Source of the DNA: an uncultured Myxococcales bacterium
Lineage (GTDB): Bacteria > Myxococcota_A > Polyangia > JAAYKL01
Direction: 5' to 3'
Assembly: GCA_964458775.1 (NCBI GenBank)
Contig: CAYWLQ010000004.1
Coordinates: 15,526-79,525, forward strand
DNA length: 64,000 bases
A program made the position numbers and the translations under genes. How positions within the stretch are numbered: position 1 is the stretch's first letter; the number at the start of each line of letters is the position of its first letter. Positions 3,300 to 49,300 of the stretch are shown one piece after another. A model generated the notes under the pieces. It did not search any database. It was given only the letters and a program-made list of their open reading frames with translations, and was not told the DNA's origin.

Positions 3300-6200
3300 C
3301 TACTTTAGGTTCAAACGCCTCATCATTTTCTGCAAACCAAATCGGGATATTCCCAACATAGTTGCTGCTGCAGTTTGATTTCCTTTTGCGTCCCTTAGCG
3401 CTGCTGTTAACAGCCTTTTTTTGAGGCGATCCACCTGAAGATTAATGTCCAAATTTGTCTCTGCAACACTCATTTCTTCCAATTGTGTTACAATATCTTG
3501 AGATAGGTGTTCAGGGCCGATTTCTTTTTCCGAAAGCACAACAGATCTAATAATTTCATTTTCTAATTGGCGAACATTTCCGGGCCACGAATAATCAATC
3601 AATATTTCTGCTGCTGCTTTAGTAATTAATTTCTTTTGACTGCTGTGTTTGGCAATGAAATGTTCCGCCAAAAGAAGAATATCTTCTTTTCTTTTTCTAA
3701 GCGGCGGCAGTGTTATTTCAATAACATTTAGACGATAATATAAGTCTTCTCTAAAAGAACCCTCTTTTACGTGTGCTTTTAGGTCTGAATTTGTTGCAGC
3801 TAAAATTCTAACATTTACTGTGCGAGTTTTGGTTCCCCCGACAGGTCTAACTTCGTGATTTTGTAATACACGAAGTAACTTAGCTTGTATGGAAAGAGGC
3901 AGGTCTGCAATCTCATCTAAAAACAGAGTTCCGCCGTCAGCCTCTACAAATAAGCCTCGACTGTCAACCACAGCTCCAGTAAACGCTCCTTTTGCATGAC
4001 CAAAAAACACTGACTCCATTAAGGACTCAGGGATGGCAGCACAGTTTTCAGCAACAAATGATTTCTTCTTTCGAGCACTGTTAAAATGAATTGCACGGGC
4101 AACAAGTTCCTTTCCGGTTCCTGACTCTCCGCCGATTATTACCGGAAAATCAGCCGCTACTATTCTGTCCAATAGACGAAAGAGTTCGACCATCGGTTTT
4201 GAATGAGCAACAATTTCATCATATTTATATCTATTAATAAGCTCTGTTGTACGCTTTTCTAATTGCTCTTTTACTTCCTCAAGTTCTCCTTCACGGCGTT
4301 CAAGTTTTCCGGCCAAATCACGATTTAGACGCTCAATACGAGCTTGACGTCTATCCAACTCCAATCGCAATCTGGCATTAGTCAGAGCAATTGCCGCTTG
4401 GTCTGCCAGTGCTTCAAGAAGTGCTAATCTGGTTTCATCGAAACGACCCGGTTGCTTGCTGTCTAGATATATTGTTCCCTGAGCCTTTCCATCTACAAGC
4501 AAAGGTATTGCAGCAATATATCTAAGATTAAAACGAACTACGCTGATCATTTCGTTAAATCGATCATCATCACGTGCATCAGTAGTTAATAACGGCTCTT
4601 TCATCTCAAAGGCACGGAGAGCAGCGCCGCGAGAAAAGCCGGCTTCTTCCAAAGACAAAGACTCTTTGTCCATATTTCTTGCACACCTTATTTTAAGCTC
4701 TCCTTTGGGACTAGCAATAAGCAAGAATCCTCGTTCAGCGTGAGTAATATCAAGAGCTGCATCCATTATCATTTCTAATAATCGTCCTACACGAAACTCT
4801 GAATTGAGCCTGGTATTAATTCTGGCCAAGTGTTCCCATCCGTATGAAGATTCAAAAAGATGAGACGATGTTTCTTTGTTTATAATCATATTCATCTCCC
4901 TTAAATACGGAGCATCGGCCTTTTGATACAAGGATGGAATTTTTTTCTGCATTGAAGATGTAATTATAGATGCAGCTGTAGCCGCACGACAGGATTCTGC
5001 CTTTTGACCGGTTGCAAAAGCAGCACGGGCAACCTCAACAAAGGCTTTTAAATGCTCATCTCTGTAGTAAGCTTGGTCTGTAGGTAATAGGCGAAGTAAA
5101 TCTTTAAGTGTCAACGCAATGTCACCGTTTGATTTGGTTGTTAGTTTTAACAAGAGTCTTTGATATTCCAATTGCAGAGATGCGTTTTTATTATGCGCTG
5201 ACAAACTAATCTTGTTCAGATAGTGTGTAGCATTTTCAAAATCCCCTATATCAATAGCTAACTCCGCAAGATGAAGCCGTGCTGAATCTGAAGACAAATC
5301 GCTTTTTTCCACGCCCGACCGAGCCTCGGCTTCCTCAAACAGTAACCGAGCTTCATCATAACGGTTTAGGGCAACAAGAATATCTCCTCTGACACATAAA
5401 ATGGTGCCGGAAAATTGCGAATTTGAACATCGTGCATCCTCCAAAGCTAAACGAGATACAGTCTCCGCACCTGCCAAATCTCCGAGTCTAAACAGAAGCT
5501 CTGCATAATTTGCTCCAGCCAAAGACAGTTCGCCGGGTCGCCCGAACAGTCTGATTTGTGACAAGCCTTCTCTATAAGCTTCAAGTGATTCTGAAAATCT
5601 TCCCAACTCAGTCAATGCCGCCGCCAAGTTTAAAATGTGGGTGGCTGCACCGTGTCGATCTCCAGCTTTTTTTGCAAATTTTACAGCTTCTGAATAAAAG
5701 GCGGCGGCTTCTATAAAATTTGATGTTCGATGACGCTGCATACCCATAAGGCCGTTGAATCTGGCTAAGCTTTTGTAGTCATATCGAGATGATGCCTTTT
5801 CAATTCCTTGAGCAAAAATGAATAATGCACGATCATCATTACCGCTAGACAAAAAAACAAGACCTACAGACGCAGATATTTCACAGTAAACCTCTGATGA
5901 AAGTTGCTCAAAAGAAATTTGTTCAACCAGTTTTCTTGCAGATTCCAAATGTCCTCGTTCAAGTTCGATGCGGGCAATTGTCGATAAGGCTGCCCCTTTT
6001 ACATCATGATTATTTGATTCTTTAAGTACTTTCAGTATTTCAACTGCTGAGCTTGTTTCTCCCAACAGACGGAGAGATAATGCCTGTTCAAGATATGCAC
6101 TGTCGTTGTTGTTCGAAGCCGTTTCTAACGCCACGCTTACAGTATCAATAGCCAATCTATATTCACCTGTTTGACGATACAACCGCGCCAAGAGCACTCT

Positions 6201-8369
6201 TAATCTACCTTCTTCTTCAGTCGAAAATGCCTTAAGAGAAATCGCTCTTGATAAATAAATAGCACCTCCTGTCAAATCGCCGGCAGCGATCAAAACAATA
6301 TAGGCATCTTTTGCAGCTGTTTTTGCTCGTTCCCAATCCTCAGCAGCATATGCATGGTCTGCTATTTTCCAAGGAGCGGCTGTGCCTGTTTTGTCCAAAA
6401 GAATAATGGCTTTTTGATGAAGTTCTCTCAATCTCCTAGAAGAAATCATTGTTGTCAGACGTTTTGCCGAAAAGGTCTTTAAAGAGATACTACCGTTATC
6501 TATGTCAACCCAACCTTGCTTTTCGAGAGTTCTAAGGTATTCCACTAGAATTGCTTCGTTTTGAATATGGAAAGTTGATGTTAGACTCTCTAAGGATACC
6601 TGTTCCCCAATCACTGCCAAAAACTCTATTGTATTTTTAGCAAGCGGATCCAATCCTTCTAAGAAGCTCTTTATTGCAGCATCAAGCGGATCCGTTTGAA
6701 ATAGCAGTTTGTCAAGGTCTGTCTCTTCAAATTTACCGTTAGGACGAGTATCCAGAAGTGCTAAGAGAATTGCTTCGACAGCAAGCGGAATGCCGCCGGA
6801 CATGCGATGTATTTTCTTTTGAAACTCAACAGCAGCAGGACGCCCTAAAATCTGGGTTACCATGTCGCATTCTTCTTCTATAGAAAGGGGCGGAATTTCA
6901 AGGATTGGAATATCTACATCAACAGAAGTAACAGTCTTTGGAACCATGCCTCTGATTTCTACTGCAACAGTAACGGACGGTCCTAAAACCCTGCTCATTC
7001 GTCTTAGAAGATGAAGCACAGCTAACGCGATATGAGGATTGTTGTCCTCTATTAGAATAATTGCCGGATAATTCAGTTTCCAGAAAACTTCCGCTATTTC
7101 AGTTATTAAGCTAACTTCATTTGTGCATTCTCGGTTAGGTAATGAATCAATTCTTCCTTCAATCCAACACTGCAAAAGTTTACAGGTTTCACCGGATGCC
7201 CTTACAAGAGAGGTTAGTATGGATCTCAGCGAGCCGCATATCAATTCCGGTGGAGTATTACCTTTTTCGGCAGCACGAATTTGAGCAGTAACAACAGCTG
7301 TTTTGAAAAATCTTGATTTACCCACACCCGGCGGACCGCTTATTGCCAGAGTTTGCACTGAATTATTGGGTCTATCCTCAAATATACTAAGCAGCTTTTC
7401 CGTTTCTTTCAAGCGTCCCGACAATCGTATACTTCTCGCTTTGGTAACACGACCGCCTTTGTCACTTGTACTGTAAGTTTCACATATGATGTCAGACAAA
7501 CTGTATTGTTGTGTTGCACCTATATTGATTATTAATGAAAGTGCTTTTGAAACATCGCCGGCACAAAAGAATCTTCGTTCCGCTTTTTGGGATGTCATTC
7601 GCTCAATAATTGCGTTTAGGAGATCTGAATCTGTAGCTTTAACAACTGAATGCAAAACATTATTCGGGTATGGGGGGAAGAAAGCTCTAGGTTTTTTGTC
7701 GGTAAGCAACTCAATTAAGGTAATTCCCAAGCTATAAATATCAGATCGTTCCTCAGGAAAACCGTGAAGCGCTTCTTCTGCTGTATAGCCGATTGTACCC
7801 GCTTTTAAACCGTCTGAGACTTTTCCATCTACTGCCAATCCAAAATCAATTAGCCTTACAGTATGTCCTTCATCACCTACCAAAATATTGGACGGTTTGA
7901 TATCCCGATGCAGCAACCCATAACGGTGGACAAGATCGAGAGCAGAAGCAACCGCTGAGACAATTCTTACTGCAGCAGCTACTCTGCCTATTCCAGGCTC
8001 TGCAATTGTCTTAATCCACTGATTGGAAGCCGAGCCGTTAACAAATTCGGAGGTGAAAAACATCGTATCCAAAAGCGGTCCGTCGCGGCCTTCAACTTGG
8101 AAAACCTTTCCCAAATCAAACACTTTGACAAGATGAAGATGTTCCATTCTTTTAACCGCTTCAAACTCATATCGAAGTAAACTATTTAAGGTAGATTTTG
8201 ATAATGTTTTTAGTGCTTTTAGATTGTCATTTTCAAGTCGGTCAGATACCAGATAGACTGTTCCTTGTCCTCCCTTTCCCAAAATGTCGTGAATGATATA
8301 TCTATTGTTAACAACCGCCTTTTCGACGAGATTTAACCGTTCCGGTTTGTTACACATTTGCTCAAACAT
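3300..8369 (-). CDS. Multidomain regulator: Ser/Thr protein kinase, P-loop STAND/AAA NTPase, TPR repeats, GAF, sigma-54 interaction domain, Fis-type HTH
   Basis: Kinase motifs 'LGKGGQGTVY', 'HRDIKPSNILV', 'DFGLA'. A Walker A 'GPPGVGKSRF' follows the kinase. A long TPR-like helical repeat region is followed by a GAF-like region. The C-terminal sigma-54 AAA+ carries '[18 protein letters not shown]', 'GAFTGA' and 'ESVFFGHAKGAFTGA', then a C-terminal HTH. The first in-frame ATG with a GGAG RBS is at 8369. The track start at 8408 is a TTG. Confidence 0.8.
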   Translation of the reverse strand: MFEQMCNKPERLNLVEKAVVNNRYIIHDILGKGGQGTVYLVSDRLENDNLKALKTLSKSTLNSLLRYEFEAVKRMEHLHLVKVFDLGKVFQVEGRDGPLLDTMFFTSEFVNGSASNQWIKTIAEPGIGRVAAAVRIVSAVASALDLVHRYGLLHRDIKPSNILVGDEGHTVRLIDFGLAVDGKVSDGLKAGTIGYTAEEALHGFPEERSDIYSLGITLIELLTDKKPRAFFPPYPNNVLHSVVKATDSDLLNAIIERMTSQKAERRFFCAGDVSKALSLIINIGATQQYSLSDIICETYSTSDKGGRVTKARSIRLSGRLKETEKLLSIFEDRPNNSVQTLAISGPPGVGKSRFFKTAVVTAQIRAAEKGNTPPELICGSLRSILTSLVRASGETCKLLQCWIEGRIDSLPNRECTNEVSLITEIAEVFWKLNYPAIILIEDNNPHIALAVLHLLRRMSRVLGPSVTVAVEIRGMVPKTVTSVDVDIPILEIPPLSIEEECDMVTQILGRPAAVEFQKKIHRMSGGIPLAVEAILLALLDTRPNGKFEETDLDKLLFQTDPLDAAIKSFLEGLDPLAKNTIEFLAVIGEQVSLESLTSTFHIQNEAILVEYLRTLEKQGWVDIDNGSISLKTFSAKRLTTMISSRRLRELHQKAIILLDKTGTAAPWKIADHAYAAEDWERAKTAAKDAYIVLIAAGDLTGGAIYLSRAISLKAFSTEEEGRLRVLLARLYRQTGEYRLAIDTVSVALETASNNNDSAYLEQALSLRLLGETSSAVEILKVLKESNNHDVKGAALSTIARIELERGHLESARKLVEQISFEQLSSEVYCEISASVGLVFLSSGNDDRALFIFAQGIEKASSRYDYKSLARFNGLMGMQRHRTSNFIEAAAFYSEAVKFAKKAGDRHGAATHILNLAAALTELGRFSESLEAYREGLSQIRLFGRPGELSLAGANYAELLFRLGDLAGAETVSRLALEDARCSNSQFSGTILCVRGDILVALNRYDEARLLFEEAEARSGVEKSDLSSDSARLHLAELAIDIGDFENATHYLNKISLSAHNKNASLQLEYQRLLLKLTTKSNGDIALTLKDLLRLLPTDQAYYRDEHLKAFVEVARAAFATGQKAESCRAATAASIITSSMQKKIPSLYQKADAPYLREMNMIINKETSSHLFESSYGWEHLARINTRLNSEFRVGRLLEMIMDAALDITHAERGFLLIASPKGELKIRCARNMDKESLSLEEAGFSRGAALRAFEMKEPLLTTDARDDDRFNEMISVVRFNLRYIAAIPLLVDGKAQGTIYLDSKQPGRFDETRLALLEALADQAAIALTNARLRLELDRRQARIERLNRDLAGKLERREGELEEVKEQLEKRTTELINRYKYDEIVAHSKPMVELFRLLDRIVAADFPVIIGGESGTGKELVARAIHFNSARKKKSFVAENCAAIPESLMESVFFGHAKGAFTGAVVDSRGLFVEADGGTLFLDEIADLPLSIQAKLLRVLQNHEVRPVGGTKTRTVNVRILAATNSDLKAHVKEGSFREDLYYRLNVIEITLPPLRKRKEDILLLAEHFIAKHSSQKKLITKAAAEILIDYSWPGNVRQLENEIIRSVVLSEKEIGPEHLSQDIVTQLEEMSVAETNLDINLQVDRLKKRLLTAALRDAKGNQTAAATMLGISRFGLQKMMRRLNLK

Positions 8370-8725
8370 ATGACAACTCCGTTGTATTAATTGTACAAAC
8401 CAAAACAATCCTTCCTATCAATTAACCAGAAACAGCATAATTATTCCTGTTGCAATATGCTGTAAAAATGCATATTTCCAACCTATTAAAGAATTTGCAT
8501 TTGATAAATGTTACCAAAACCCCATGTCAACAAGGTTGACAAACCTAATTTTACCTGAATATTTTTGAACAAGTGTTGTATGTAAGAAAAATACTACACA
8601 AAAGAAGAGTTCTAAACACATGTCTATTCAACAAAGAAAAATTTTCTATCCTTAATACGCGCACCATGTGCTAAGGTCACGAAGGATATATTTTTTAATT
8701 AATACAATCGGTCATGGGAGTTGCT

Positions 8726-21569: not shown

Positions 21570-22049
21570 TCAATAGGGAGTTTTTCCTTCCATCTTATTC
21601 CAAAGCAACAAAGGCTTTTCCCCTTCTTCACTTTTAATATAAATCATAGGAATTTTACGTAGAGCAATATCTACGGAAACTTCTTTGTATAGGTCTGCAT
21701 CATCGAATCCTACAGCGGCAGCTTCGAATCTTGTAGACGCAAAATAAATCTTTTCAATTCGCGCCCAGTAGATTGCAGCCAAGCACATAGGACAAGGTTC
21801 GCATGTTGTATAGATTTCACAATTGCTAAGTCGAAAATCTCCCAGGTTTTGACATGCCTGTCTGATAGCGCATATTTCTGCATGAGCGGTAGGGTCATTA
21901 TCTCTCACAACTCTATTAGAGCCGACTCCGATAACTTTTCCATCTTTTACTACTACAGCCCCAAAAGGTCCTCCCTTACCGTCAGCCATGTTTTTGATAG
22001 CTTCTTCTGCAGCCAATTTCATCATTTCTTGTATAAAGAGTGATGTCAT
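21570..22049 (-). CDS. Nucleoside/nucleotide deaminase (CMP/dCMP-type zinc deaminase; TadA/guanine deaminase-like)
   Basis: Zinc motifs 'HAEICAI' and 'CEPCPMC'. The ATG at 22049 forms an ATGA overlap with the stop of the upstream lipoprotein gene. The track start at 22067 is a TTG. Confidence 0.7.
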   Translation of the reverse strand: MTSLFIQEMMKLAAEEAIKNMADGKGGPFGAVVVKDGKVIGVGSNRVVRDNDPTAHAEICAIRQACQNLGDFRLSNCEIYTTCEPCPMCLAAIYWARIEKIYFASTRFEAAAVGFDDADLYKEVSVDIALRKIPMIYIKSEEGEKPLLLWNKMEGKTPY

Positions 22050-23095
22050 ATTCCGATACCTATCCAAGTAAACCGCGGAATAGGCGGTGTTACTATTTTC
22101 CGGTTTTTAACTAAAGCCTGTCCGCAAGAATGCATAATTCCGTCCTCAACCATTTGTAACTCGCCGGCACCGCTATCATTCACGCAATCACCGAGTTCAT
22201 CCACATATATAAAACTTGGTTGGTCTAACAAATTCTCATCTCCCCAATAAGAGTCATAACCGCCCAATAAATAAATCGTTGCTGTGGTATTGTCCTCAAA
22301 GTCTTCCGGCGCATCTATTGTCAAAGAGACTCCCCCTCCTTTTAGTCGAGCCCATCTAGGGCTAATAAAATACAAAGCACTAAGCTTTTTGTCTACAAAC
22401 GGCGGTGTCCATATTTCCAAAGGAGCCTTGAATACACGAATTTCTTGTTCATGTTCAGGTGCAACCTCGCTACTTCCGTCAAATTTTACCAACACTCCCG
22501 GCTCTAATACTGTAGTTAAGCCCAGAGTTGAGATAACAGCGCCCTCAGACGGTTGATAAACAGTTGAATCAGATGGAAGCGCAAACAAAAAAAGCTCTCC
22601 AATATCCAAATCAAAATCGCTCTCGCCCTTGTCGCTGATAGTTTCTTTGGATGGAACACTGACAAAAGCATATTCAGCAAAAGCATTTGTATCGCTTAAA
22701 ACACGAAGGTCAATATGCAACGGCTTCTTGTTAAAATCATAGGGGACACAATCTATATCTTCGTCCATCGGATGATTCCAAACAAAGGTTCCGTCAAGAG
22801 AGGAGAAAACAGGGGCAAAACAACTTCCAATACAAACTATGACAGCAGCAGAGGTTGGTTCTGCATCCATAATTCTAATTTGTCCTGAAATAGAGGCAAG
22901 ACACGCCCCTCTATCCATATCAGAAGAACTAGATGTGTCGGAATCGTACATAACACTTACAGAATCGCTGTTGTCGTCAACAGGCGGCTTGTTGCAAAAC
23001 CCCGACAAAAGGCAAAGAATAACTATAACAATTGGAAGTTTTATAAACCTATAGCAGAGAATGGACAGAGTGGACATAGTAGACATAATGGACAT
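22046..23095 (-). CDS. Hypothetical secreted protein or lipoprotein
   Basis: Signal-like 'MSTLSILCYRFIKLPIVIVILCLLSGFC'. Candidate ATGs at 23095, 23086 and 23077 lie inside a palindromic repeat. The rest has no recognisable domain. Confidence 0.4.
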   Translation of the reverse strand: MSIMSTMSTLSILCYRFIKLPIVIVILCLLSGFCNKPPVDDNSDSVSVMYDSDTSSSSDMDRGACLASISGQIRIMDAEPTSAAVIVCIGSCFAPVFSSLDGTFVWNHPMDEDIDCVPYDFNKKPLHIDLRVLSDTNAFAEYAFVSVPSKETISDKGESDFDLDIGELFLFALPSDSTVYQPSEGAVISTLGLTTVLEPGVLVKFDGSSEVAPEHEQEIRVFKAPLEIWTPPFVDKKLSALYFISPRWARLKGGGVSLTIDAPEDFEDNTTATIYLLGGYDSYWGDENLLDQPSFIYVDELGDCVNDSGAGELQMVEDGIMHSCGQALVKNRKIVTPPIPRFTWIGIGI

Positions 23096-23170
23096 AGTGG
23101 ACTCCCGGAAGCGGATTAAGCAAGAGCGGTCCACAATGTCTACTCTGTCTACTGTGTCCACTGTGTCCAT
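23061..23170. repeat. Imperfect 42-bp inverted repeat (arms 23061-23102 and 23129-23170, 26-bp spacer) built from helically phased RTGGACA / TGTCCAY hexamers
   Basis: The left arm is atggacagagtggacatagtagacataatggacatagtggac. The right arm is gtccacaatgtctactctgtctactgtgtccactgtgtccat (about 35/42 complementary). Each arm has about 5 hexamer copies at 9-11 bp spacing. Confidence 0.7.
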
Positions 23171-23202
23171 TAAAACAGCGCTTTCTCTCCTTCTCCCGTC
23201 CA

Positions 23203-25617
23203 TCAATGCCTCACTCCCCTGGGCTCCCATTGCAAACCCGCAGCATAGCCGATTGAAAAGCCGTATTGATAGTCTGAAGAATTGCTTTGATAGACTATAA
23301 GTGGATCTATCATCTCTTTGTTTAAAGCATAGGTTGTAATAGCAATGTTCATAGTCGGACCGCAATAAAAAGAGAGTTGTTCTATTATTCGAATTCCCAA
23401 AACAGGTCTAAGTTTTAGTATGTAGCCTGTTGACTCAGAATCCCAATTATAATTTTGGAAAATTCGATTTGCAGTTAAATCCAGTTCTACCCATAAACGA
23501 GTAAAATTAATATGACCTCCAAGACCGCCTATGAGTGAATAGCGATCAAGCTCTCCAAAACCATGATATCCCGCACCTAATATACCGAACAAATATGGAC
23601 CGCCTATTTTCAAACCCGCATTTATTAACGAGGTATCGCTTGACCAAACAGTGGGAGCCAAAATTCCGTTGCCGGCATAGTTGATAAGACCAACCGCAGC
23701 ACCGTCCAGTCTTTTTGATGCTATATTTATAAGTCCTATCTGGGCCCCTTTTACTTCTTTGGCATAATTAATAAGTCCTATCTGAGTGCCGTTTATATGT
23801 TCTTTAACAATATTTACCACTGATGACATTTGAAGGCCGTTTAACGACCATGCATAGTTTGATACAAAAGACCCTTGATATCCATTGGAAATGTCTCCAG
23901 CACTAATATTGATAACTCCCGAACCCTGAAAACCGGCCATAGAGCTCTTATTGAAATTGAAAACAAAAGCCCCTTGAAAACCATAAGAACGTGCACCGTT
24001 TATATTACCGACTCCGGCAGCCTGAAAACCGCCTGCAGAAGCCTTATTCATATTGACGAAACCGGCCAGCTCAGCTCCGAGAAAGGGCCCCATTACGATA
24101 TTTGAACCGCCGGCCAAAGATACCCCCTTAAATGCTCCTCCTGAATAATTGCCAAAGCCGGCATATTTAAATCCCGTGCTTTCTTTTAGTATAAAATTTG
24201 CAAAACCTGCAAATTGTGCGCCCCTAAGGTTTTCCAGTGCAACATTCACTCCAAATGAAGCCTGCAGACCCCACACATTAAATCTTCTTATATTACCGAC
24301 AAGTCCGGCTTCTACACCGAAAAGTTCATGGCCGTATCCTATTATATTTAAGGATAGATTATTCATTTCTTTTTCTCGACGGCCGAAATTAAAAGGAATA
24401 TTTACCCCGGGAACCAATCCTAGTCGAAAGGCTGTATTTTTTTCACCGTTATACCATACCAATGGTCTTTCTTGAGATTTTTCAGAAGCTTTTCCAGCGG
24501 CAGGCAAAGTAAAATTATCAATTGGAGATGTTCCTCTCAAAATTGTATTCTCTGCTGACATACGCTTAAGCTCAGATCTAGTTACAATAGTGGTCCTACC
24601 CTTGTTCAGAGATACAGTTCCTTTGAGAGGAGCCTTACCCATGTCCATACTTATCTCGTACACACCAGGGTCCAGTCCTAAACTTATAGGACTGCCGCCA
24701 GGAGTATTGATTTCTGCAGTGAGTTGTCCTTTACGGTTTCTTATAAATACTCGACCTTCGATATCATCTCCAATTACCAACATGGCAGACGTGCCTCGAA
24801 GATCCGTGAGCACAAGATCTCCTGATCCTTTTAGACTAAAGTCATATCCCGCATGCTGCGGTCCTGCCTGGGTTAATTCTGTTCGAGCTAATGTTTCCGC
24901 GAAAGCATATTGATAAGCCTCATTTAGGGTTACCTTATTGTCTCGATTATGATCAGCAGCACCGCGCAGACCTGATACCAGATAATAGGTAAAAAAAGAT
25001 GCTGCAATCCGATCTGATTCTTGAGCAGCCTCGTTCTCTGAAGCAGATGTTAGGTAAGCATACCCCTCAACATCTACTGAGGTATCTAATAAGAAAGGAG
25101 TACGCTTGGTTCCGCCTTTGTTGCGAACAAGCGCACCTGATGAACAAGAATCTAGGATGGCAATTCGAACATCTGCCGGAAGACTTGATAGAGCATTTCT
25201 TATTTCTCGATAAGTTATAAGATCACCGCCAAGCATTAGACCATATTCATCAGAGTGACCCGAATAATAGAATACCAATTCCACACGCGTTGAAGCGACT
25301 TTTTTTTCTCGCTCTAAAAAAGCGCGCATTCTAGAAAGCCCTGCTTCAAATTCGAATCTGTCAGGCTCTAGAAGTATTACCATATCGGCTAATTGAACTC
25401 CTCCCAACTGCGTAAGCACTCCTGCCACCGATTTGGCATCCGAATGTGCAAATTTAAGAACGGTACGGTTGGGACCTCCGTCATTGGAGCCTGCAACAAA
25501 AGCAAATCGTTTTATTACTTCACGCGATTCAGAAGCATACAAGCCTACCGACAGAAAACAGACCGCCAAAAAAACTATTAATGATAGTCTTGTATTAAAA
25601 AGACATTTGTTTTTCAT
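23203..25617 (-). CDS. Secreted caspase-like peptidase (C14 family His-Cys dyad) with about 20-aa Gly/Asn-rich repeat region and C-terminal beta-rich domain
   Basis: Signal peptide 'MKNKCLFNTRLSLIVFLAVCFLSVGLYA'. C14 motifs 'LVFYYSGHSDEYG' (His) and 'RIAILDSCSSGALV' (Cys). Mid-protein degenerate repeats such as 'GAQIGLINIASKRLDGAAVGLINYAGNG'. Confidence 0.7.
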   Translation of the reverse strand: MKNKCLFNTRLSLIVFLAVCFLSVGLYASESREVIKRFAFVAGSNDGGPNRTVLKFAHSDAKSVAGVLTQLGGVQLADMVILLEPDRFEFEAGLSRMRAFLEREKKVASTRVELVFYYSGHSDEYGLMLGGDLITYREIRNALSSLPADVRIAILDSCSSGALVRNKGGTKRTPFLLDTSVDVEGYAYLTSASENEAAQESDRIAASFFTYYLVSGLRGAADHNRDNKVTLNEAYQYAFAETLARTELTQAGPQHAGYDFSLKGSGDLVLTDLRGTSAMLVIGDDIEGRVFIRNRKGQLTAEINTPGGSPISLGLDPGVYEISMDMGKAPLKGTVSLNKGRTTIVTRSELKRMSAENTILRGTSPIDNFTLPAAGKASEKSQERPLVWYNGEKNTAFRLGLVPGVNIPFNFGRREKEMNNLSLNIIGYGHELFGVEAGLVGNIRRFNVWGLQASFGVNVALENLRGAQFAGFANFILKESTGFKYAGFGNYSGGAFKGVSLAGGSNIVMGPFLGAELAGFVNMNKASAGGFQAAGVGNINGARSYGFQGAFVFNFNKSSMAGFQGSGVINISAGDISNGYQGSFVSNYAWSLNGLQMSSVVNIVKEHINGTQIGLINYAKEVKGAQIGLINIASKRLDGAAVGLINYAGNGILAPTVWSSDTSLINAGLKIGGPYLFGILGAGYHGFGELDRYSLIGGLGGHINFTRLWVELDLTANRIFQNYNWDSESTGYILKLRPVLGIRIIEQLSFYCGPTMNIAITTYALNKEMIDPLIVYQSNSSDYQYGFSIGYAAGLQWEPRGVRH

Positions 25618-25618
25618 G

Positions 25619-26422
25619 TCATTTCCGAACCTTCTTTAAAAGGAAATCGCATTGAGATAACGATGAGTCAAGAGGAAGACTTTTATCTATGCCTAGTTTG
25701 CTTCGTTTGGCCTTTTCAACTATTTCGGATGGTTCTATTGAGTTATTTGAGGTTACAAAAAAGAACCTTTCAAAATGAGGTGCATCGTCCAATTCGTAAG
25801 AAAAATCTAGTGTATGAATTCCCTTACCGTCAATCTTTGCAGAACGACTATCCGAACCCGGATAATGCAAGGTTGTAATTCCGTTTCCGTCAATCGAGAA
25901 GATGACACCATATTGTGCACCCTTAGCTGCAAATTTAAGTTGAATTACATCACCTGCTGTTGCTGATTGTCCTGACAACAGTCTTTCCTCTCCGACCTTG
26001 CCTTTTCGATAGACATAGAGTGTCGGCTCTGTAGGTCCCTTAATTCTGGTTTCTTCAGACAAGTTCCAAGCATTTGACTGTGTATTGTTTGCGAAGCGGT
26101 TATCGATCTTTTCATTTTTCGATATAAAAACCACTGTAAGAAAGACGGAAACCGTCGCAACCGCTGACACTGCAACTGCAAAGCTTATTATTCTTTTAGG
26201 ACTGGACTCAACCGATCTATTGGCGTCGGCAATTCTTGCGGCAATTTGATTAGGCGGATATTGAGCCAAAATCTCCTTGTCGGATTCAATGATCGCACAT
26301 ATCTCTTTGTTTAACGAGGGGTTCTCATCGCGCTGCCTTTCGATTTCGGCCATTCGATCGGCACTCAACTCGCGCAACACAAATCTTTCCATTTCAATTT
26401 GGGAAATCTTTGTTTTTTCCAT
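25619..26422 (-). CDS. Anti-sigma factor (single TM, periplasmic C-terminal domain)
   Basis: Its ATG is 1 nt after the ECF sigma stop. N-terminal 'MEKTKISQIEMERFVLRELSADRMAEIERQ', then a TM segment 'AVAVSAVATVSVFLTVVFI'. Confidence 0.55.
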   Translation of the reverse strand: MEKTKISQIEMERFVLRELSADRMAEIERQRDENPSLNKEICAIIESDKEILAQYPPNQIAARIADANRSVESSPKRIISFAVAVSAVATVSVFLTVVFISKNEKIDNRFANNTQSNAWNLSEETRIKGPTEPTLYVYRKGKVGEERLLSGQSATAGDVIQLKFAAKGAQYGVIFSIDGNGITTLHYPGSDSRSAKIDGKGIHTLDFSYELDDAPHFERFFFVTSNNSIEPSEIVEKAKRSKLGIDKSLPLDSSLSQCDFLLKKVRK

Positions 26423-26922
26423 TATAATGTCTCTCCTGCAAGCTCCCCAAGTTTTGAACGAAGAGGTCTGAGTCTCTTTCTTACACCGGATATGCTCATG
26501 CCTACTTCGGATGCAACTTCTTCTAAAGTCATACCGTCCACTAAATGCAATACGGCAATCGTTCCAGTTGACACTTTTTCATCCCCAAAAAGATGACCTA
26601 TAATATTCCTCGCAGAAATCTTCGATTCAACTTCTTGTGTTTCAGCAATTTTTAAAAGCAGTTCATCGCCAAGATGTTCAGGCCTTCTTTTTAATGACCG
26701 AATCTTGTTGAGACATATATTGGTGGCCATTCTATAAAGAAGCCCGGATGGTGCTTCTTCTGTAAGATTTTTTTTGTGCTTGATCAACTGCACAAATGTA
26801 TCCTGCATCGCCTCAACAGAGGTTTCTTCGTCGCAAAGAAGCTTACGACAACGCCGAAGAACCATAGGTCCGTATCTTCTGTACCAATCTTCAACATCAA
26901 CAGCCACTAAAATGCCTCCCAA
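26422..26922 (-). CDS. RNA polymerase ECF-type sigma-70 factor
   Basis: Sigma-70 region 2 'MQDTFVQLIKH...YRMATNICLNKIR'. Region 4 'GMTLEEVASEVGMSISGVRKRL'. 166 aa. Confidence 0.8.
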   Translation of the reverse strand: MGGILVAVDVEDWYRRYGPMVLRRCRKLLCDEETSVEAMQDTFVQLIKHKKNLTEEAPSGLLYRMATNICLNKIRSLKRRPEHLGDELLLKIAETQEVESKISARNIIGHLFGDEKVSTGTIAVLHLVDGMTLEEVASEVGMSISGVRKRLRPLRSKLGELAGETL

Positions 26923-26941
26923 CTCCTACTACAAAAACACC

Positions 26942-26975
26942 AAACCGAGGCAAAAGTGTTACCGCAGTTCGGTTT
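26942..26975 (-). terminator. Hairpin (AAACCGA / TCGGTTT, 20-nt loop) followed on the minus strand by GTGTTTTTG, a candidate ilvC terminator or attenuator
   Basis: Seen directly in the sequence. It lies only about 20 bp upstream of the ECF sigma start, so its role is ambiguous. Confidence 0.25.
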
Positions 26976-28556: not shown

Positions 28557-28931
28557 ATGGATAACACCGTAATCAGCGGTTCAATCAAGATCGAAGGCGA
28601 GCTTATTTGCAATGATGATTTAACTATTTCCGGATCTATAAAAGGTAAGGTTATATCTAAAGGCAATATTAAAGTTGAGGAATCCGGAGATGTTGATGCT
28701 TCAGTAGAAGCCGTTAATTTAGAGGTGGCCGGAAGAGTAATTGGAGATATGACTGTTGAAGAAAAAGTTGAAATTGTAACCGGCGGACATGCAGTTGGAG
28801 ATATCAGCGCCGAACGGATATTAATAGCGGACGGTGCTGTTTTTCGAGGAAACGTGGACATGAGCGCCTCCAAGAAAAATGCGCACGCAATATCAATTGC
28901 GCACGCTTCCTCAAATACAAAACAAAGATAA
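28557..28931 (+). CDS. Bactofilin (polymer-forming cytoskeletal protein, DUF583)
   Basis: Beta-helical repeats 'ISGSIKIEGELICNDDLTISGSIKGKV...VAGRVIGDMTV...ADGAVFRGNVDM'. Confidence 0.75.
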   Translation: MDNTVISGSIKIEGELICNDDLTISGSIKGKVISKGNIKVEESGDVDASVEAVNLEVAGRVIGDMTVEEKVEIVTGGHAVGDISAERILIADGAVFRGNVDMSASKKNAHAISIAHASSNTKQR

Positions 28932-28940
28932 AGGTTCAGT

Positions 28941-29603
28941 ATGAGCGACACAAAAACTATTATTGGTGAAACCTCTATTATTCGCGGAAGTGTGGAGGGT
29001 GATGAAGATCTTGTGATCCACGGAAGGGTCGAGGGCTCCATATCTCTTTCGGGGATGCTTATTGTTGAACAGCAAGGTATGGTCCATGCGGATATAAATG
29101 TACGAAGTGCATTTATACATGGAACTTTGCTAGGAAATATCGAAGCATCAGAAACGGTTTATATCACATCAGGAGGAAGAATGTCCGGTGATATACGTGC
29201 ACCTCGTGTAGTATTAGAGGAGGGAGCTGCCTTTAACGGCAATGTGGACATGGGCGAAATAGACTTCGAAGCCCCCGCTCTGTCGACTAGAAGCAAAGCT
29301 ATGCCGGTTTCCTCAAGGCAGATTGCTCATACCTCTGAACCGGAGCCGGCGGTTCGCACGTCGCGAACTTTTACTACTAAGCCCATTGTTGCTTCAAGAT
29401 CAGCATTGCCCTCCTCCAAGATTGCCGCTGCTGCTGTATCAGATTCTACTGTTCCGACAATTTCAAAAGCACCGGCAAGACCTCCTATGCCTGTTCCGTC
29501 AAGACCTGTAGGTCCCCCGTTTCCGGCAACACAACACGAAAAAAAAGGAGCGCCGGAACCTAAGGTTCGTCCTCTCGGCAGAGCAAAAGCTCGAAGGCCG
29601 TAA
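28941..29603 (+). CDS. Bactofilin paralog with Pro/Ala-rich C-terminal tail
   Basis: 'IRGSVEGDEDLVIHGRVEGSISLSGMLIVEQQGMVHADI...GAAFNGNVDM', followed by a low-complexity P/A/S-rich tail. Confidence 0.75.
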   Translation: MSDTKTIIGETSIIRGSVEGDEDLVIHGRVEGSISLSGMLIVEQQGMVHADINVRSAFIHGTLLGNIEASETVYITSGGRMSGDIRAPRVVLEEGAAFNGNVDMGEIDFEAPALSTRSKAMPVSSRQIAHTSEPEPAVRTSRTFTTKPIVASRSALPSSKIAAAAVSDSTVPTISKAPARPPMPVPSRPVGPPFPATQHEKKGAPEPKVRPLGRAKARRP

Positions 29604-42983: not shown

Positions 42984-45900
42984 ATGAATATTAAAGAAGC
43001 AAAAATTAGACTAAACAAAAATGAACTATTTCTACGATTTTTATGTGCAGTTTTTTTGTTAGGACTTGCAGCGACAATGTCGTGTGAAGGAGACGGACCT
43101 AAAATCGGAAAAGACGGTTCAGATGCTGATGCAGATAGTGATTCGGACATTGATGCAGATGCAGATTCGGATATTGATGTAGATACGAATAACATTCCAG
43201 GCGATACCGACAATAACGGTTCTGATACTGCTATTTGTGTGGGATTGGAGGCAATAGGTGATCCAAGATGTAGAATGGAACCTTCCGGCCCGGCCTGCGG
43301 AGATGCGGAGATTAATCAAGAAAGTGAGGAATGTGACGACGGAAACACACTTCCAGGTGACGGTTGCAACGGAATTTGCAGAGTCGAACCAAACTGGGTT
43401 TGTCCTAAACCCGGTGAAAAATGTACCCTGCTTATTATTTGCGGTAACGGAAAAATAGAACCGGGTGAGGTATGTGATGACGGAAATAATATTGATGATG
43501 ACGGTTGCAACAATAAGTGTGAGCAGAGCCCCAATTATATTTGCCCAAGGCCTAATGAGGCTTGTCAAAGAGTGGTGGTGTGCAACGACGGACGAATTGG
43601 GGGTGATGAAACCTGTGAAGACGGTAACACAATTTCCGGAGACGGTTGTGATGAGAATTGCCACAGAGAAGACGGTTGGATATGTTTAATTCCGGGGCAA
43701 AAATGTGTTCCCAGAAATGTTTGCGGTGACAGCATTCTAAGCGCCGCTGACGGAGAAAAATGTGATGACGGCAATACAAGAGACGGTGATGGGTGTGCCG
43801 GAGATTGCAAGAGTATCGAATCAGGTTATGTTTGTCCTGAAGCCGGAAAACAATGTGTTAACACAACAGTATGCGGTGACGGCAGAGTTTCAGGATCGGA
43901 AACCTGCGATGATGCTAATGATGATCCGGCCGACGGATGTGATAACTGTGCATTACAGCCCGGCTATGAATGCCCTTTCCCCGGCGCCAAATGTCTTGCC
44001 AAATGCGGAGACGGAATAATATTGCTCAATGAAGAGTGTGACGACGGAAATACTCAGGACGGCGACGGATGTACAAGTACCTGCGAATGGGAAGACGGCT
44101 TTATCTGTACCGGCACACCTCCTAACTATGTGTGCCGAGAAACAGTTTGCGGAGACTCCAAAGTGGAAGGTACGGAGGCATGTGACGACGGAAATAACAA
44201 CATGGGAGACGGATGTACTCCATTCTGCGATAAAGAACCTATCTGTAATGGAGGTGCTTGCACTTCAACTTGCGGTGACAGTCTTTTGCTTACCAGCATG
44301 GGGGAAGAATGTGATGACGGTAATGCTCGTGACGGAGACGGTTGCTCTTCCAGTTGCAAAATAGAACCCGGATTTCAATGTGTACAACCGCCTATTGGCG
44401 ATAAAATGACTATTCCGTTAGTAGTTAGAGACTTTCCGGGCACTCACGCAGACTTTGAGAACGGGGTTACAGGCTCTGTTGATGCAACATTAGGTTTAGT
44501 AAAGGATACATTGGATGCTGACGGTAAACCGGTATTTGCCGGCGCAAACTCTACAGGACATATTGCAAGTGCAGCTTCTTTTGCTGAATGGTTTAGGGAT
44601 GCTTCATCCAATACAACCGTTGTAACTTCACTGACGCTCTATGATAACGGCAACGGTGGTTATGTTAACCGATGGGGACCTGACGGTGAGCCTTTTGCTT
44701 ATTACACTGATGCAGTATGGTGCGGAAACGGAGGAGCCGGTTGTACTGAATGTACGGAAGATCAATATGATGTTTGCTTAGACCCATGCACATATTGGGG
44801 TAACGGCAATACTTCGGCTTGTGGAGTTCAGGCAGTTTACATGGAGGGAAATCCTGTTTTCTTTCCCGCTGACGGTATAGCCGGTGCAACTCCTTTGTCT
44901 ATAGCTCAAATACCGCCGCCTTATGCTGACAGTTGGCCTGCTGAGTTTCCGGATCTTGATGTGGCGGACCAGCCTAAGCATAATTTCGCCTTTACCAGTG
45001 AAGTCAGATATTGGTTTCAGTATAATTCTGCACAAACCTACACACTTGACTTCTTGGGGGATGATGATGTTTGGGTTTTCCTAAACAATAAGTTGGCTGT
45101 TGATCTAGGAGGTATTCATACTCCTGTAGCCGGTAACCTAACAATTGCCGGTTTGGCAGACGGTACAGCCTACGGAATGGAAGACGGCAAGGTTTACGAA
45201 ATAGTGGTTTTCCAAGCTGAGCGTCAAACCACTTGCTCCTCCTATCAGCTAACTCTTAGCGGTTTTAATGCTGCAGAAACAAAATGCGGACCTATTTGCG
45301 GTGATGCCGTAATGTCTCCGGGAGAACAATGTGATAACGGAGATGCTGAAAACACCGGAGGTTACGGCAAGTGTCAACCTGATTGTACGAGAGGACCTTA
45401 TTGCGGTGACGGCAAAGTTCAAAATGATATTGATTCGGTAACCGGTGAACCGTACGAGCAATGTGACGACGGTGTGAACGTAAGCCCTTATAGCATAGAT
45501 ATGACCTCAGGCTGCTCTCCCGGATGCATCCAGCCTCCATATTGCGGTGACGGTATTGTTCAGGGAGCGTTTGGAGAGACCTGTGATGACGGAGTAAATG
45601 ACGGTTCTTATGGCGGATGTTCAAGCACTTGCGGATATGCCGCATGGTGCGGAGACGGAATTAAACAAGAGGCCTTTGGAGAAGAATGCGACGACGGTTT
45701 GAATGACGGAACCTATAATACATGTTCTCCGGGATGCAAAGCTCCTCCTCGTTGCGGTGACGGCATACTTCAAATAGAATGGGGTGAGCAATGTGAAATA
45801 GGAGAAGCAAACTGCAGCGACAAATGCAATTGGCTGGGAGTTTGCGGCGACGGTTCTGTTGATGACGGAGAAGAATGTGATGATGGAGTCAACGACGGCG

Positions 45901-46184
45901 GTTACGGAGAATGTGCTCCGGAATGCAAACTAGGTCCATATTGCGGTGACGGAGCAGTTGAAACATCTATTAATCCGGCCACGAGCAATCCTTACGAACT
46001 CTGTGATGATAGAAATAACAAAGGCGGCTATGGAGAATGTGCTCCGGGATGTGTACTTGGACCGAGATGCGGAGACGGAATCCCTCAGCCGGGATATGAA
46101 GAATGTGATGAAGGTGAAAAAAACGGAACTTCGCAATCCCTTTGTACCTCTGCTTGCAAGGAAATATTAATCATTCCTATTTGA
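42984..46184 (+). CDS. Giant secreted (lipoprotein-like) Cys-rich repeat protein with central fibro-slime domain
   Basis: Signal with Cys '[11 protein letters not shown]'. An Asp/Ser acidic linker follows. There are 12 or more N-terminal repeats 'CGxGxxExGExCDDGNxxxGDGC', a central '[28 protein letters not shown]...[14 protein letters not shown]' fibro-slime motif, and 8 or more C-terminal Cys repeats. Confidence 0.8.
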
Positions 46185-46321
46185 CATCGACTTGATCCTG
46201 TTTTTAGTTTAATTGAAATATTCTATTTCATTTGAGAGGCTTCCTAATCTCTGCTACCTTTTATTAATAGAGGACTTTTTGTTTAGAATTAACTTGTTTA
46301 TTAGAATGAAGGATTGAAATC

Positions 46322-49300
46322 ATGACAACAATTAGATTCTTAAATGGACTATGCTGTATGAAGGGGTTTGTTTTAATAATAGTCAGTTTGTTTGTCTTCG
46401 TTGCAACAACATCATGTGAAGGCGGCGGACCGGAAATAATTTCGGGCGGTGATGCGGATGCGGATTCTGACGCTGACGGGGATACCGACCGCGAAGGTGA
46501 TTCGGTAACGCCCGGCGATACAAGCGACAAAGAAAACAATACCGACAATAGTGGAGATACGGCTATCTGCGCAGGACCGGACGCAATAGGCGACCCAAGA
46601 TGTCGAATGGAACCTTCCGGACCGGCCTGCGGTGATGGGGAAATTAATCAAGAAAGCGAGACGTGTGACGACGGCAATACACTTCCTGGTGACGGTTGCA
46701 ACGGTATTTGTAGAGTTGAACCCAACTGGCAATGTCCGGTACCGGGAGAAAAATGTATTTTGTTGATTGTTTGCGGCAACGGAAAGATTGAACCCGGCGA
46801 AGTATGTGATGACGGTAACACTATTGATGACGACGGATGCAACAGCACTTGTACTATTCAGAGCGCTAATTTTATATGTCCTACTCCCGGTGAGAAATGC
46901 CAACGTGTTGAGTTTTGCGGAAACGGAAGAATAGGCGGAGATGAAACCTGTGAAGACGGAAATACTGTTTCAGGAGACGGGTGCGATGAGAATTGTAAAA
47001 GGGAAGAAGGCTGGCTTTGTCTTATACCCGGTGAAAAATGTGTAAAAAAGAACGTTTGCGGTGACGGTCGGTTAGCTGTTGCCGATGGTGAGATATGTGA
47101 CGACGGAAATACCGTTAACGGTGACGGATGCTCAGCAGATTGTAAATCCATTGAACCCGGTTATGTATGTCCTGATCCCGGTCGGCAGTGTATAAATACA
47201 ACTCTTTGCGGTGACGGTCGTGTTTCAGGAAATGAAACATGTGACGATGCTAACAATGATCCCAGTGACGGATGCGATAATTGCAAAATTCAAACAGGCT
47301 ATGAGTGTCCTTTCCCCGGAGCGAAATGCATACCCAAATGCGGAGACGGTTTAACAATTCTCAACGAAGAATGTGATGACAAAAATACTGACAACGGCGA
47401 CGGTTGTACAAGCACCTGTGAGTGGGAAGACGGTTTTGTCTGCTCGGGAACACCTCCCGATTATGTATGTAGAGCCACAAAATGCGGTGACGGAAAAGCC
47501 GAAGGAACAGAGGCATGTGATGACGGCAACAATATTCCCGGCGACGGTTGTTCTCCGACTTGTCGTTGGGAACCTGCATGTTCAGGCGGACAATGCAGCT
47601 CTCCATGCGGTGACGGTTTGGTTGTCAACGAGGAATGCGACGATGGTAATACTAATGATGGAGACGGTTGTTCGTCAGGTTGCAAGATAGAAGACGGTTT
47701 TGTTTGTAAACAAGCGCCCATGGGAGATTCTATGATGGTTCCGGTGGTATATAGGGATTTTACTACTTCCCATCCGGACTTTGAACCTAGTGCTACCGGT
47801 CTCAGTGCAGCTGCTACAGGTTTGGTTCAAGATAGATTAGATGCAGACGGCAAACCTGTTTTTGCGGGAGTGCCGGGAGGAGCAGGACTTGTTACAAGCG
47901 CATCCTCTTTTTCTCAGTGGTATAGGGATGTGACCGGAGTAAATGCAACTATTGTAGATACAATGACCCTATATGCAAATGGGAGCGGGGGTTTTGTTAA
48001 TAGATGGGGTACTGACGGAGAACAATGGGCATCCTATAAAGAAGTTTGGTGTGCGCCGGACAATCCGGACGAAATCACCGATCCTTGTGTATATATATAT
48101 AACGCTGATGATTGTGACGAGCTTCGGGATCAATTGGTAGATTGTGTAGTTCACGGAGGTGCACAATGGGGAGTTTATATTGATCAGGCTTATGACGGCA
48201 ATCCGACCTTTTTTCCATTAGACAATCACCCGGATGCCATAACGCCTCTATCCGAGTACTCTTATGCTCAAATACCTCCGGCATATGACACAAGTGAGAG
48301 CTGGCCGTCGGACGAAGGCAGCCATAATTTTCATTTTACCAGTGAAGTTCGCTATTGGTTTAAATATGAAGCAGATCAGGTTTTCACTTTGGACTTTACA
48401 GGGGATGATGACGTATGGGTTTTTGTAAACAATCGTTTGGCTGTTGATCTGGGAGGCATTCACACTCCGGTAGACGGCAGCTTGAGGCTTGCTTCTGCTG
48501 CCGACGGTGCAAAATACGATATGGAAGACGGAAAGGTATATGAGATAGTAGTCTTTCAGGCTGAACGTCAGATAACTTCATCCACCTACAAACTTACGCT
48601 CAGCGGATTTAATTCTTCTGAAAGCAAGTGCGGACCTGTTTGCGGAGACGCTATTTTGTCGCCGGGAGAACAATGTGACAACGGCAAAGAACAAAATGTC
48701 GGAGGATACGGCAAATGCGACCCCGAATGTACTAGAGGACCGTATTGCGGTGACGGTATTGTTGAAACAACTATTAATCCGGACAATGAGATGCCCTATG
48801 AGCAGTGTGATGACGGTGTAAATATAAGTCCATACGGAATGAAACAAACCGACGGATGTTCTCCAGGATGTGTTTTACCGCCGTATTGCGGCGATTCAAT
48901 AGTTCAAGGTGCTTTTGGAGAGACTTGTGACGACGGCATCAACGACGGAAGCTACGGCGGTTGTACTTCCCAGTGCGGTTTGGCACCATGGTGCGGTGAT
49001 GGAAATAAACAAGAAGAATTCGATGAAGAATGCGATGACGGTCTAAATGACGGAACCTATAATACCTGTTCTCCCGGATGCAAGCTTCCTCCTCGCTGCG
49101 GTGACGGCATACTTCAAATAGAATGGGGAGAACAGTGCGACAGTACAGATGATTGCGGACCCAACTGCAAATTTTTAGGAATATGCGGTGACGGTGTTGT
49201 GGATGATGACGAGCAATGCGATGACGGAATGAATATCGGCGGCTATGGAGAATGTGCACCGGGTTGTGTAATAGGACCTCATTGCGGTGACGGAGCAGTT

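Follow-up and report, generated by a model that had tools for sequence, protein, structure and literature searches.

The 64,000-nucleotide (nt) stretch of DNA analysed here, referred to as the window, belongs to contig CAYWLQ010000004.1 of an uncultured Myxococcales bacterium. Between positions 23203 and 26922, its minus strand carries open reading frames (ORFs) for a sigma factor of the extracytoplasmic function (ECF) type, a putative single-pass anti-sigma factor, and a Peptidase_C14 (caspase-family) protein. An earlier note on this DNA had described the three as a co-directional operon, which is borne out by the ORFs, their coordinates and the family matches, with small corrections. The sigma gene (26422..26907, minus strand) and the anti-sigma gene (25619..26422, minus strand, 267 amino acids [aa]) share one nt, TAATG, where a 1-nt gap had been reported. 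The anti-sigma stop is separated from the ATG of the caspase gene (23203..25617, minus strand) by one nt, TGAcATG, instead of two. The sigma start had been placed at TTG 26922, which gives the longest ORF, but GTG 26907 has a GGGAGG ribosome-binding box 7 nt upstream, is also the start in a separate gene prediction for an identical metagenome contig, and is likely to be the real one, yielding a protein of 161 aa. The sequence layout suggests that sigma factor, anti-sigma factor and protease are probably translated in a coupled manner from a single transcript with one ECF-type promoter.

The 161-aa protein is assigned by its sequence to the ECF (group IV) sigma-70 factors. It matches the Pfam family Sigma70_r2 (E=5.9e-10, 39.2 bits against a cutoff of 24) and the TIGR02937 (sigma70-ECF) model with 51.2 bits (cutoff 42.9), the Sigma70_r4_2 match lies slightly below its cutoff (22 against 25.7 bits), and the closest PDB sequences are those of the ECF factor SigE.

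The 804-aa product of the third gene has 3453 detectable homologs; the best 120 of these are mostly full length, with 36-64% identity, and the nearest ones (49-64% identity) come from Myxococcota and from metagenome-assembled genomes labelled ‘Deltaproteobacteria’. With one genome taken per species, the locus scan gave at least 575 loci, found in Myxococcota, in many Spirochaetota including Leptospirales, and in Bradymonadales, Fermentibacteria and Eiseniibacteriota; for the neighbourhood counts given below, 85 loci were fetched. In at least 72 of the 79 eligible ones, the gene immediately 5' of the caspase gene and on its strand is the anti-sigma gene, which in 49 of these cases overlaps the caspase start by 4 nt; a sigma gene precedes the pair in 59 of 70 loci. 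The three-gene arrangement is thus far above chance. Cultured carriers include Stigmatella aurantiaca DW4/3-1, Corallococcus species and Treponema brennaborense.

To find the promoter, two-part words were enumerated in the 250 nt that precede each of 62 sigma genes; the word pair GTGAC...GTGT occurs at 34 loci, compared with at most 9 in shuffled sequences. In 52 of 64 loci, the window among them, the resulting consensus, GGT(G/A)ACA-N16-CGGTGTT (GT[GA]AC-N17-GTGT), lies about 40 nt 5' of the start of the sigma gene. Its spacing is constant across the loci from Myxococcota and Spirochaetota, and the motif is found at the loci of cultured species of Stigmatella, Corallococcus and Myxococcus and of Treponema brennaborense. 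The copy in the window, GGTAACA-N16-TGGTGTT, spans 26936-26963 on the minus strand, with a -35 element GGTAACA (26957..26963, minus strand) and a -10 element GGTGTT (26936..26941, minus strand). It matches the pattern GT[GA]AC-N17-GTGT exactly and is the top position weight matrix (PWM) match in the 64-kb window, with 25.3 bits against a maximum of 16.7 in shuffles.

The earlier note had suggested looking for a promoter of this type before the protease gene as well; the PWM scan of the window finds no motif copy there, which means that the protease would have to be read through from the sigma promoter. The proposed co-expression of protease and sigma factor thus holds as a prediction, given a conserved motif before the sigma gene and none before the caspase gene. 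Where the sigma or the anti-sigma gene is missing, the motif fronts the genes that remain, standing directly before the pair or the protease gene, and by this sequence criterion the protease appears to be a genuine target of this type of sigma factor. Two other matches in the window were treated as chance and rejected as regulon members: an exact motif at 3465-3491 (minus strand), within the 3' end of a large kinase/sigma-54-activator gene, and the second PWM match at 45342-45383 (minus strand), which is antisense within a DUF4215 gene.

Further motif copies occur in several of the related loci (L009 2473-3400, L049 2986-3613, L054 7121-7766, L038 7287-7945 and L072 815-3275). The genes behind them encode an ExbB/TolQ-like protein (two copies), homologous proteins of about 190-200 aa resembling outer membrane proteins, and a protein resembling a TonB-dependent receptor. 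The composition of this set suggests that an envelope regulon stands behind the sigma factor, with the genes after the extra motif copies as candidate members, and envelope stress is a plausible trigger.

The product of the third gene is classed by sequence as a C14 protein with a caspase fold and an intact His/Cys dyad, for which proteolytic activity is predicted. The p20-like caspase domain (aa 35-250; 24868..25515, minus strand), supported by Pfam, Foldseek and the family alignment, matches Peptidase_C14 (PF00656) with 28.2 bits against a cutoff of 21.4. The dyad had been noted from the window sequence, and it is confirmed at the family level: the segments YYSGHSDE with His121 (25255-25257, minus strand) and LDSCSSGA with Cys158 are invariant in an alignment of 42 sequences and present in all 84 non-redundant related loci. 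Also invariant in this alignment are Asp156, two residues before the cysteine (Asp156-Ser-Cys158, 25144-25152, minus strand), and K167, G168 and G169 of the loop that follows it (R165-N-K167-G-G169, 25111-25125, minus strand). The loop reads [TA]-R-x-K-G-G in 83 of 84 loci.

The protease was modelled with AlphaFold2 from the family alignment (mean predicted local distance difference test [pLDDT] score of 81). In the model, the caspase domain has an alpha/beta structure in which the loop after the catalytic cysteine (aa 159-189) is disordered, with pLDDT below 50. In a Foldseek search against the PDB the domain matches the MALT1 paracaspase (E=1.5e-5) and also Arabidopsis metacaspase 9 and yeast Yca1. 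These proteins and the orthocaspase MaOC1 resemble the window protease in their fold and also have a His/Cys dyad, an Asp two residues ahead of the Cys and, after it, a flexible loop with basic residues. In TbMCA2 and MALT1, the residue equivalent to Asp156 lines the S1 pocket for basic P1 residues. By analogy, the invariant Asp156 and the nearest structural relatives suggest that the protease has Arg/Lys P1 specificity. In contrast to the orthocaspases, metacaspases and paracaspases, the window protein is predicted to be exported and is fused to 16-aa repeats and a beta-barrel, and none of the matched solved caspase-fold structures has this architecture or a sigma/anti-sigma context.

At the N-terminus, a hydrophobic helix (aa 5-28) followed by LYA/SE is seen in the alignment and in the model and is conserved in the caspase homologs; it would serve as a signal peptide. 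The caspase domain is followed in the model by a beta-sandwich (aa 266-350; 24568..24822, minus strand) and a disordered linker (aa 356-388). Homology between this beta-sandwich and the C-terminal domain of the anti-sigma factor was considered and rejected, the profile-profile comparison giving a probability of 0.3%. The remainder of the protein (aa 390-800) is predicted to be all-beta, with pLDDT mostly above 90, in agreement with the beta-rich C-terminus that the earlier note had described. That note had also reported about 300 aa of degenerate Gly/Asn/Ile repeats with a period of about 20 aa; the tandem repeats are there, but their period is 16 aa and they span about 220 aa. Around 13-14 Gly/Gln/Asn-rich units (G-x-Q-x-A-G-x-x-N...) cover aa ~434-650 (23668..24318, minus strand), the BLOSUM autocorrelation being 0.49 at lag 16 and 0.28 at lag 32, while shuffled sequences reach at most -0.19. 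The last repeats contain two stretches that match the NCBIfam LA_2272 surface repeat (NF047436) with 40.1 bits (cutoff 25), and one Myxococcus homolog also matches the VC2662 family below its cutoff.

The C-terminal region (aa ~651-804; 23206..23667, minus strand) is predicted to form a small beta-barrel of the outer membrane protein type. The best Foldseek matches, which are weak, are OmpA, NspA, the N-terminal barrel of OprF and a designed 8-stranded barrel (probability ~1.0, E 3e-3 to 1.6e-2), and many of the caspase homologs end with an aromatic residue right after the last strand. A natural 511-aa variant from an uncultured relative (contig ERZ25039600, locus L087 5807-8256) consists of the caspase domain, the beta-sandwich and a short beta C-terminus without the 16-aa repeats. 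Conversely, a stand-alone secreted Myxococcus protein of 202 aa is 48% identical to aa 619-769 of the Stigmatella protease. From these two natural forms, the barrel can be read as an autonomous unit and the repeats as an optional insert. The gene following the 511-aa variant encodes a 282-aa protein with weak similarity (E=0.04) to the beta-sandwich of the protease.

The small outer-membrane-type barrel, retained in the 511-aa variant as the only part besides the caspase domain and the beta-sandwich, speaks against the earlier description of the protein as secreted. A passenger of 350 aa cannot pass through the lumen of a small barrel, so that the caspase domain would stay on the inner side, and the model makes it most likely that this domain is periplasmic and tethered to the outer membrane by the barrel. 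A type Va autotransporter is not indicated: there is no Autotransporter match in Pfam, no helix is predicted before the barrel, and the best-matching barrels are 8-stranded, whereas the translocator barrel of that type has 12 strands.

The AlphaFold2 model of the 267-aa protein encoded between the sigma factor and the protease (pLDDT 85 overall) shows a four-helix N-terminal domain (aa 8-73, pLDDT above 90), a transmembrane helix (aa 78-100), a disordered low-confidence linker (aa 101-133) and a periplasmic beta-sandwich containing one helix (aa 134-265). An identical protein occurs in an NCBI/Logan record. Searches of Pfam, NCBIfam and the PDB sequences link the N-terminal domain to no known anti-sigma domain, and the protein sequence lacks the HxxxCxxC zinc motif. 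Its role as an anti-sigma factor is therefore inferred from its position, its topology, and the annotations of its homologs in the source databases, which read ‘ActD-like protein’ or ‘anti-sigma-K factor RskA’. A PDB profile search and a Foldseek search with the model yielded only generic Ig-like sandwiches, with no Csx30 and no known anti-sigma domain among them.

The periplasmic domain (25628..26023, minus strand) of the window protein matches DUF4384 (PF14326) below the cutoff (E=0.019, 15.5 bits against 27). At the family level, it can be classed by sequence as a divergent DUF4384 domain, because 11 of the 42 aligned family members match PF14326 at E<=0.01, the best with E=2.2e-9. DUF4384 is known as an accessory domain of cyanobacterial orthocaspases (PMC7475262). 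It is also the C-terminal domain of some Csx30 proteins, which are cleaved by a caspase-like protease to act on an ECF sigma factor. At the end of the linker, close to the membrane, lies a conserved R-x-K-G motif (R126-I-K128-G129, codons 26036..26047, minus strand) that we regard as a candidate cleavage site. The family alignment shows K128 without variation and G129 conserved to at least 90%; of 79 loci, 70 carry R-x-K-G and 78 carry K-G.

The anti-sigma and caspase genes also stay together away from the sigma gene. Eleven loci have the pair but no adjacent sigma gene, and each of them carries the same ECF motif immediately before the anti-sigma-like gene, including those of Archangium and Vitiosangium, in which the pair is on its own. 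By this pattern, anti-sigma factor and protease behave as an evolutionary unit. Since the pair is kept even without an adjacent sigma gene, the protease looks like a partner, and is probably also a regulator, of the anti-sigma factor and not only an output of the sigma factor.

The mechanism that we favour, as a tentative working model held with less than even confidence, is an autoregulated trans-envelope module in which the periplasmic caspase acts on the anti-sigma factor and thereby helps to switch the sigma factor on. The barrel would sit in the outer membrane, with the caspase domain in the periplasm facing the DUF4384 domain of the anti-sigma factor. An envelope signal would activate the caspase, possibly through a self-cut at its own R-x-K-G-G loop; the loop after the catalytic cysteine is where caspases autoprocess. 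The active caspase would then cut the anti-sigma linker at R-x-K-G as the site-1 protease, an RseP-type intramembrane protease would next release the sigma factor, and the freed sigma factor would re-induce the operon in a positive feedback and also induce a small envelope regulon.

Four lines of evidence point to an action of the caspase on the anti-sigma factor. In other systems, caspases and other proteases carry DUF4384 as a fusion partner; the fold relatives are Arg/Lys-specific and Asp156 is invariant; a basic R-x-K-G is present both in the exposed anti-sigma linker and in the loop after the protease cysteine; and DdvA of Myxococcus xanthus offers a precedent for a proposed periplasmic caspase-fold site-1 protease. 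The more specific and more general claim, that outer-membrane-tethered periplasmic C14 caspases are the dedicated site-1 proteases of a widespread ECF pathway and cut DUF4384 anti-sigma factors at R-x-K-G, is possible but doubtful.

Several points weigh against such a mechanism. The step in which the caspase cuts the anti-sigma factor is a prediction and pure inference. The short R-x-K-G could be structural instead, for example as the start of the first beta-strand. The Arg of the motif is missing in 9 of 79 anti-sigma proteins, and their partner caspases have no consistent matching change. The protease can also exist without its partner: loci L041 and L046 encode a caspase without an anti-sigma gene, with the motif immediately before the protease, and in L031 the caspase gene likewise lacks an anti-sigma gene, there with no exact match to the motif. 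A search for co-variation of the Arg or the ‘x’ position between the caspase loop and the anti-sigma motif gave no consistent pattern. As a single anecdotal case, L074 is the sole locus without Arg in the protease loop (TMHKGG), and its anti-sigma linker is also without Arg (IGIKG).

The two loci in which the motif directly precedes a caspase gene lacking an anti-sigma partner also fit with the protease being an effector only, so that sigma and anti-sigma factor would sense the signal by other means and the caspase would be the main product of the regulon without control over the sigma factor. Such a protease of the envelope or the cell surface would remodel or degrade extracytoplasmic proteins in quality control, nutrition or predation. 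The predicted co-transcription of the caspase gene from the ECF promoter and the envelope proteins (outer-membrane-protein-like, ExbB/TolQ-like and TonB-dependent-receptor-like) encoded by the other motif-preceded genes are in line with this explanation. However, it leaves unexplained why the pair stays together, with 4-nt overlaps, in three genomic contexts, also without the sigma gene, and why the periplasmic domain of the anti-sigma factor belongs to a type that elsewhere occurs joined to caspases and proteases. We consider an exclusively effector-type protease rather improbable, and the two readings are not mutually exclusive.

The layout of the module also parallels cell-surface signalling of the FecA-FecR-FecI type, in which an outer membrane barrel with a periplasmic N-terminal extension works together with an anti-sigma factor of the single-pass type and with an ECF sigma factor that is autoregulated. 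The outer membrane protein could accordingly act as a non-proteolytic partner switch, binding the DUF4384 domain through its caspase domain or beta-sandwich and passing on a conformational signal. In a variant of this explanation, the DUF4384 domain would keep the protease inactive, a general Prc/DegS-type protease would make the site-1 cut, and the substrates of the caspase would be other proteins. The conservation of the pair suits binding as much as cleavage, and in the sigma operon of Myxococcus the third gene encodes the barrel only, so that a catalytic domain beside the sigma factor is dispensable there. Against this, the catalytic His and Cys, the Asp two residues before the Cys and also the R-x-K-G-G loop are kept across 84 full-length homologs, which argues that catalysis is under selection. 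Furthermore, Pfam searches detect no STN, FecR or TonB-dependent receptor domain in the module, whose outer membrane partner bears a protease in place of a signalling domain. A purely conformational switch therefore seems unlikely to us.

A caspase-family protease beside an ECF sigma factor is also found in type III-E CRISPR loci, which raises the possibility of an anti-phage defence or programmed-cell-death module, with the caspase as a death effector released by the sigma response. The top NCBIfam caspase match, the EACC1-associated caspase model (NF047832), might point the same way, yet it reaches only 60.6 bits against a cutoff of 140. The proteins themselves give little sign of defence: in PADLOC neither the anti-sigma factor nor the caspase has a match, and that of the sigma factor, to LmuC, is marginal (E=0.007). 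In the related loci that were inspected, the called genes include no cas gene and no NTPase partner, nor was a context of toxins or effectors seen. The locus is chromosomal and syntenic over long distances, for example beside dnaN in Stigmatella and Myxococcus, and the protease is predicted to be exported and membrane-anchored, away from cytoplasmic targets. The programmed-death-like function raised in the earlier note thus finds no support in these observations, and we regard it as highly improbable.

Among known systems, two combine a caspase-fold protease with an anti-sigma factor and an ECF sigma factor. In craspase (RpoE, Csx30, Csx31, Csx29), an ECF sigma factor is bound by an anti-sigma-like protein, which a caspase-like protease cuts; that system is cytoplasmic, RNA-guided and TPR-CHAT-based, whereas the window protein belongs to C14 without a CHAT or TPR match, no Csx30 is found in the PDB profile search, no cas genes are adjacent, and PADLOC is negative. 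The M. xanthus system DdvS/DdvA, an ECF sigma factor with its single-pass anti-sigma factor, has a protease domain of the caspase fold in the periplasm. This TPR-CHAT domain of DdvA has been proposed to be the site-1 protease of the anti-sigma factor itself, acting before RseP (PMC11506125). The CHAT domain there is part of the anti-sigma protein, comes with TPRs, is linked to a zinc-binding anti-sigma domain, and controls a CBASS/CRISPR island. The window, in contrast, encodes a separate barrel-tethered protease of the C14 and not the CHAT type, and a 267-aa DUF4384-like anti-sigma factor without HxxxCxxC. Because the features that define craspase, DdvA, FecIRA and the autotransporters are absent in each case, we place the module outside these four families; it may nevertheless work like craspase and DdvA.

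The kind of each part is already known, that is, the ECF sigma factor, the anti-sigma factor, the C14 domain, the LA_2272 repeat and the OmpA-like barrel, and the protease family is annotated as ‘caspase family protein’. What appears to be new is their arrangement, for which we found no description: an ECF operon has a defined promoter, a gene for a DUF4384 anti-sigma factor and, conserved in third place, the gene of a free-standing C14 protease that is predicted to be barrel-tethered. Our literature search found no paper linking an ECF sigma factor to Peptidase_C14, and the main text of the ECF reclassification by Casas-Pastor et al. (2021) mentions neither a caspase nor a DUF4384 context.

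Homologs of caspases are abundant in bacteria, but to our knowledge a substrate or a role in physiology is known for hardly any of them. ECF pathways, for their part, often lack an identified site-1 protease. The module offers a compact and testable pairing of the two, with a defined promoter, a candidate cleavage motif, catalytic residues and cultured hosts. If the favoured mechanism is true, a bacterial orthocaspase-type protease would gain a defined physiological substrate, and the module would be a free-standing counterpart of the caspase/anti-sigma/ECF logic of craspase (Csx29-Csx30-RpoE) and DdvA. The module suggests that the combination of the three, so far seen in these two systems, is a broader and older design of regulation.

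The pair is also found in the act developmental operon of Myxococcus. In seven act-type loci (Myxococcus, Pyxidicoccus, Citreicoccus and a mislabelled ‘Comamonas’), it directly follows three genes that encode a GGDEF response regulator (301 aa), an NtrC-type activator, and an epimerase/GNAT protein. The family profiles of the anti-sigma factor and the caspase match the paired genes of these loci at 1e-73 or better, and NCBI names these anti-sigma homologs ‘ActD-like protein’. ActA (302 aa, GGDEF) corresponds to MXAN_3213, and ActB to MXAN_3214. With actA-actB-actC-like genes before the pair and ‘ActD-like’ names, the pair can be assigned by sequence to the actD and actE positions of the act operon. 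In Myxococcus sp. CA023 (locus L056 16-7166), for example, the anti-sigma-like/caspase pair ends the actA-actB-actC operon and has its own ECF-type motif.

The act-operon pair is homologous to that of the window and carries the same ECF motif upstream, but the proteins share only about 32% (anti-sigma factors) and 37-38% (caspases) of their residues. Since the window pair is linked to a sigma gene and not to actABC, the two pairs may represent paralogous lineages. The sigma factor of Myxococcus is encoded elsewhere, at a dnaN-linked locus (L088 6001-7882, CP080534.1), where an orthologous sigma gene, its product 88% identical to that of Stigmatella and the motif lying upstream, is followed by a second anti-sigma paralog and then by the 202-aa barrel-only protein described above. 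Judged from the shared motif, this implies that an unlinked ECF sigma factor feeds into the act developmental operon.

The act phenotypes were reportedly characterised by Gronewold and Kaiser in 2001 as changes in the timing of CsgA production. We found no literature on actC, actD or MXAN_3216/3217 in a search that left the original act-operon papers (2001, 2002) outside its range. The two poorly characterised genes that end the act operon gain a molecular reading from the module; if this reading is true, the distal act genes would be an anti-sigma/caspase pair under an unlinked ECF sigma factor, tying the timing of the C-signal to envelope proteolysis.

Downstream of the caspase stop in the window, RNA folding predicts an imperfect hairpin (23057..23170, minus strand) of -66.3 kcal/mol (z=-5.8), with none of 200 shuffled sequences equally stable. 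Its arms consist of about 4.6 copies each of tandem 9-nt units, TGGACATAG and GTCCACTGT; the hairpin occurs once in the window and has no clear U-tract. It may be a terminator at the end of the operon or a structure stabilising the mRNA. The possible start codons of the next ORF (22046-23365, minus strand) fall within its 3' arm. This ORF has no Pfam match and no homolog among the 85 related loci and was ruled out as a member of the module by its lack of conservation. Its real start is probably near 23090; its product has a hydrophobic N-terminal segment ending in ...LLSGFC and so may be a lipoprotein.

Elsewhere in the window, the ORF at 3300-8408 (minus strand) encodes a 1702-aa fusion of a Ser/Thr kinase, an AAA_16/TPR (STAND-like) region, a GAF domain, a sigma-54 activator and HTH_8. 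Two adjacent bactofilin genes lie at 28557-29603 (plus strand), with Pfam matches of E=3e-22 and 1e-24, the second product having a long Pro/Ala-rich tail. The GC content of the window is about 41% and rises locally to 45-48% at 42984-49525. Together with the bactofilin pair, two DUF4215 cysteine-rich repeat proteins and the origin of the nearest protease homologs, the overall GC value suggests that the DNA comes from a low-GC bacterium within or related to the Myxococcota. Two adjacent paralogous genes on the plus strand (42984-46184 and 46322-49525) encode secreted proteins of 1066 and 1067 aa, the first of which carries eight DUF4215 cysteine-rich repeats and a PA14 domain.

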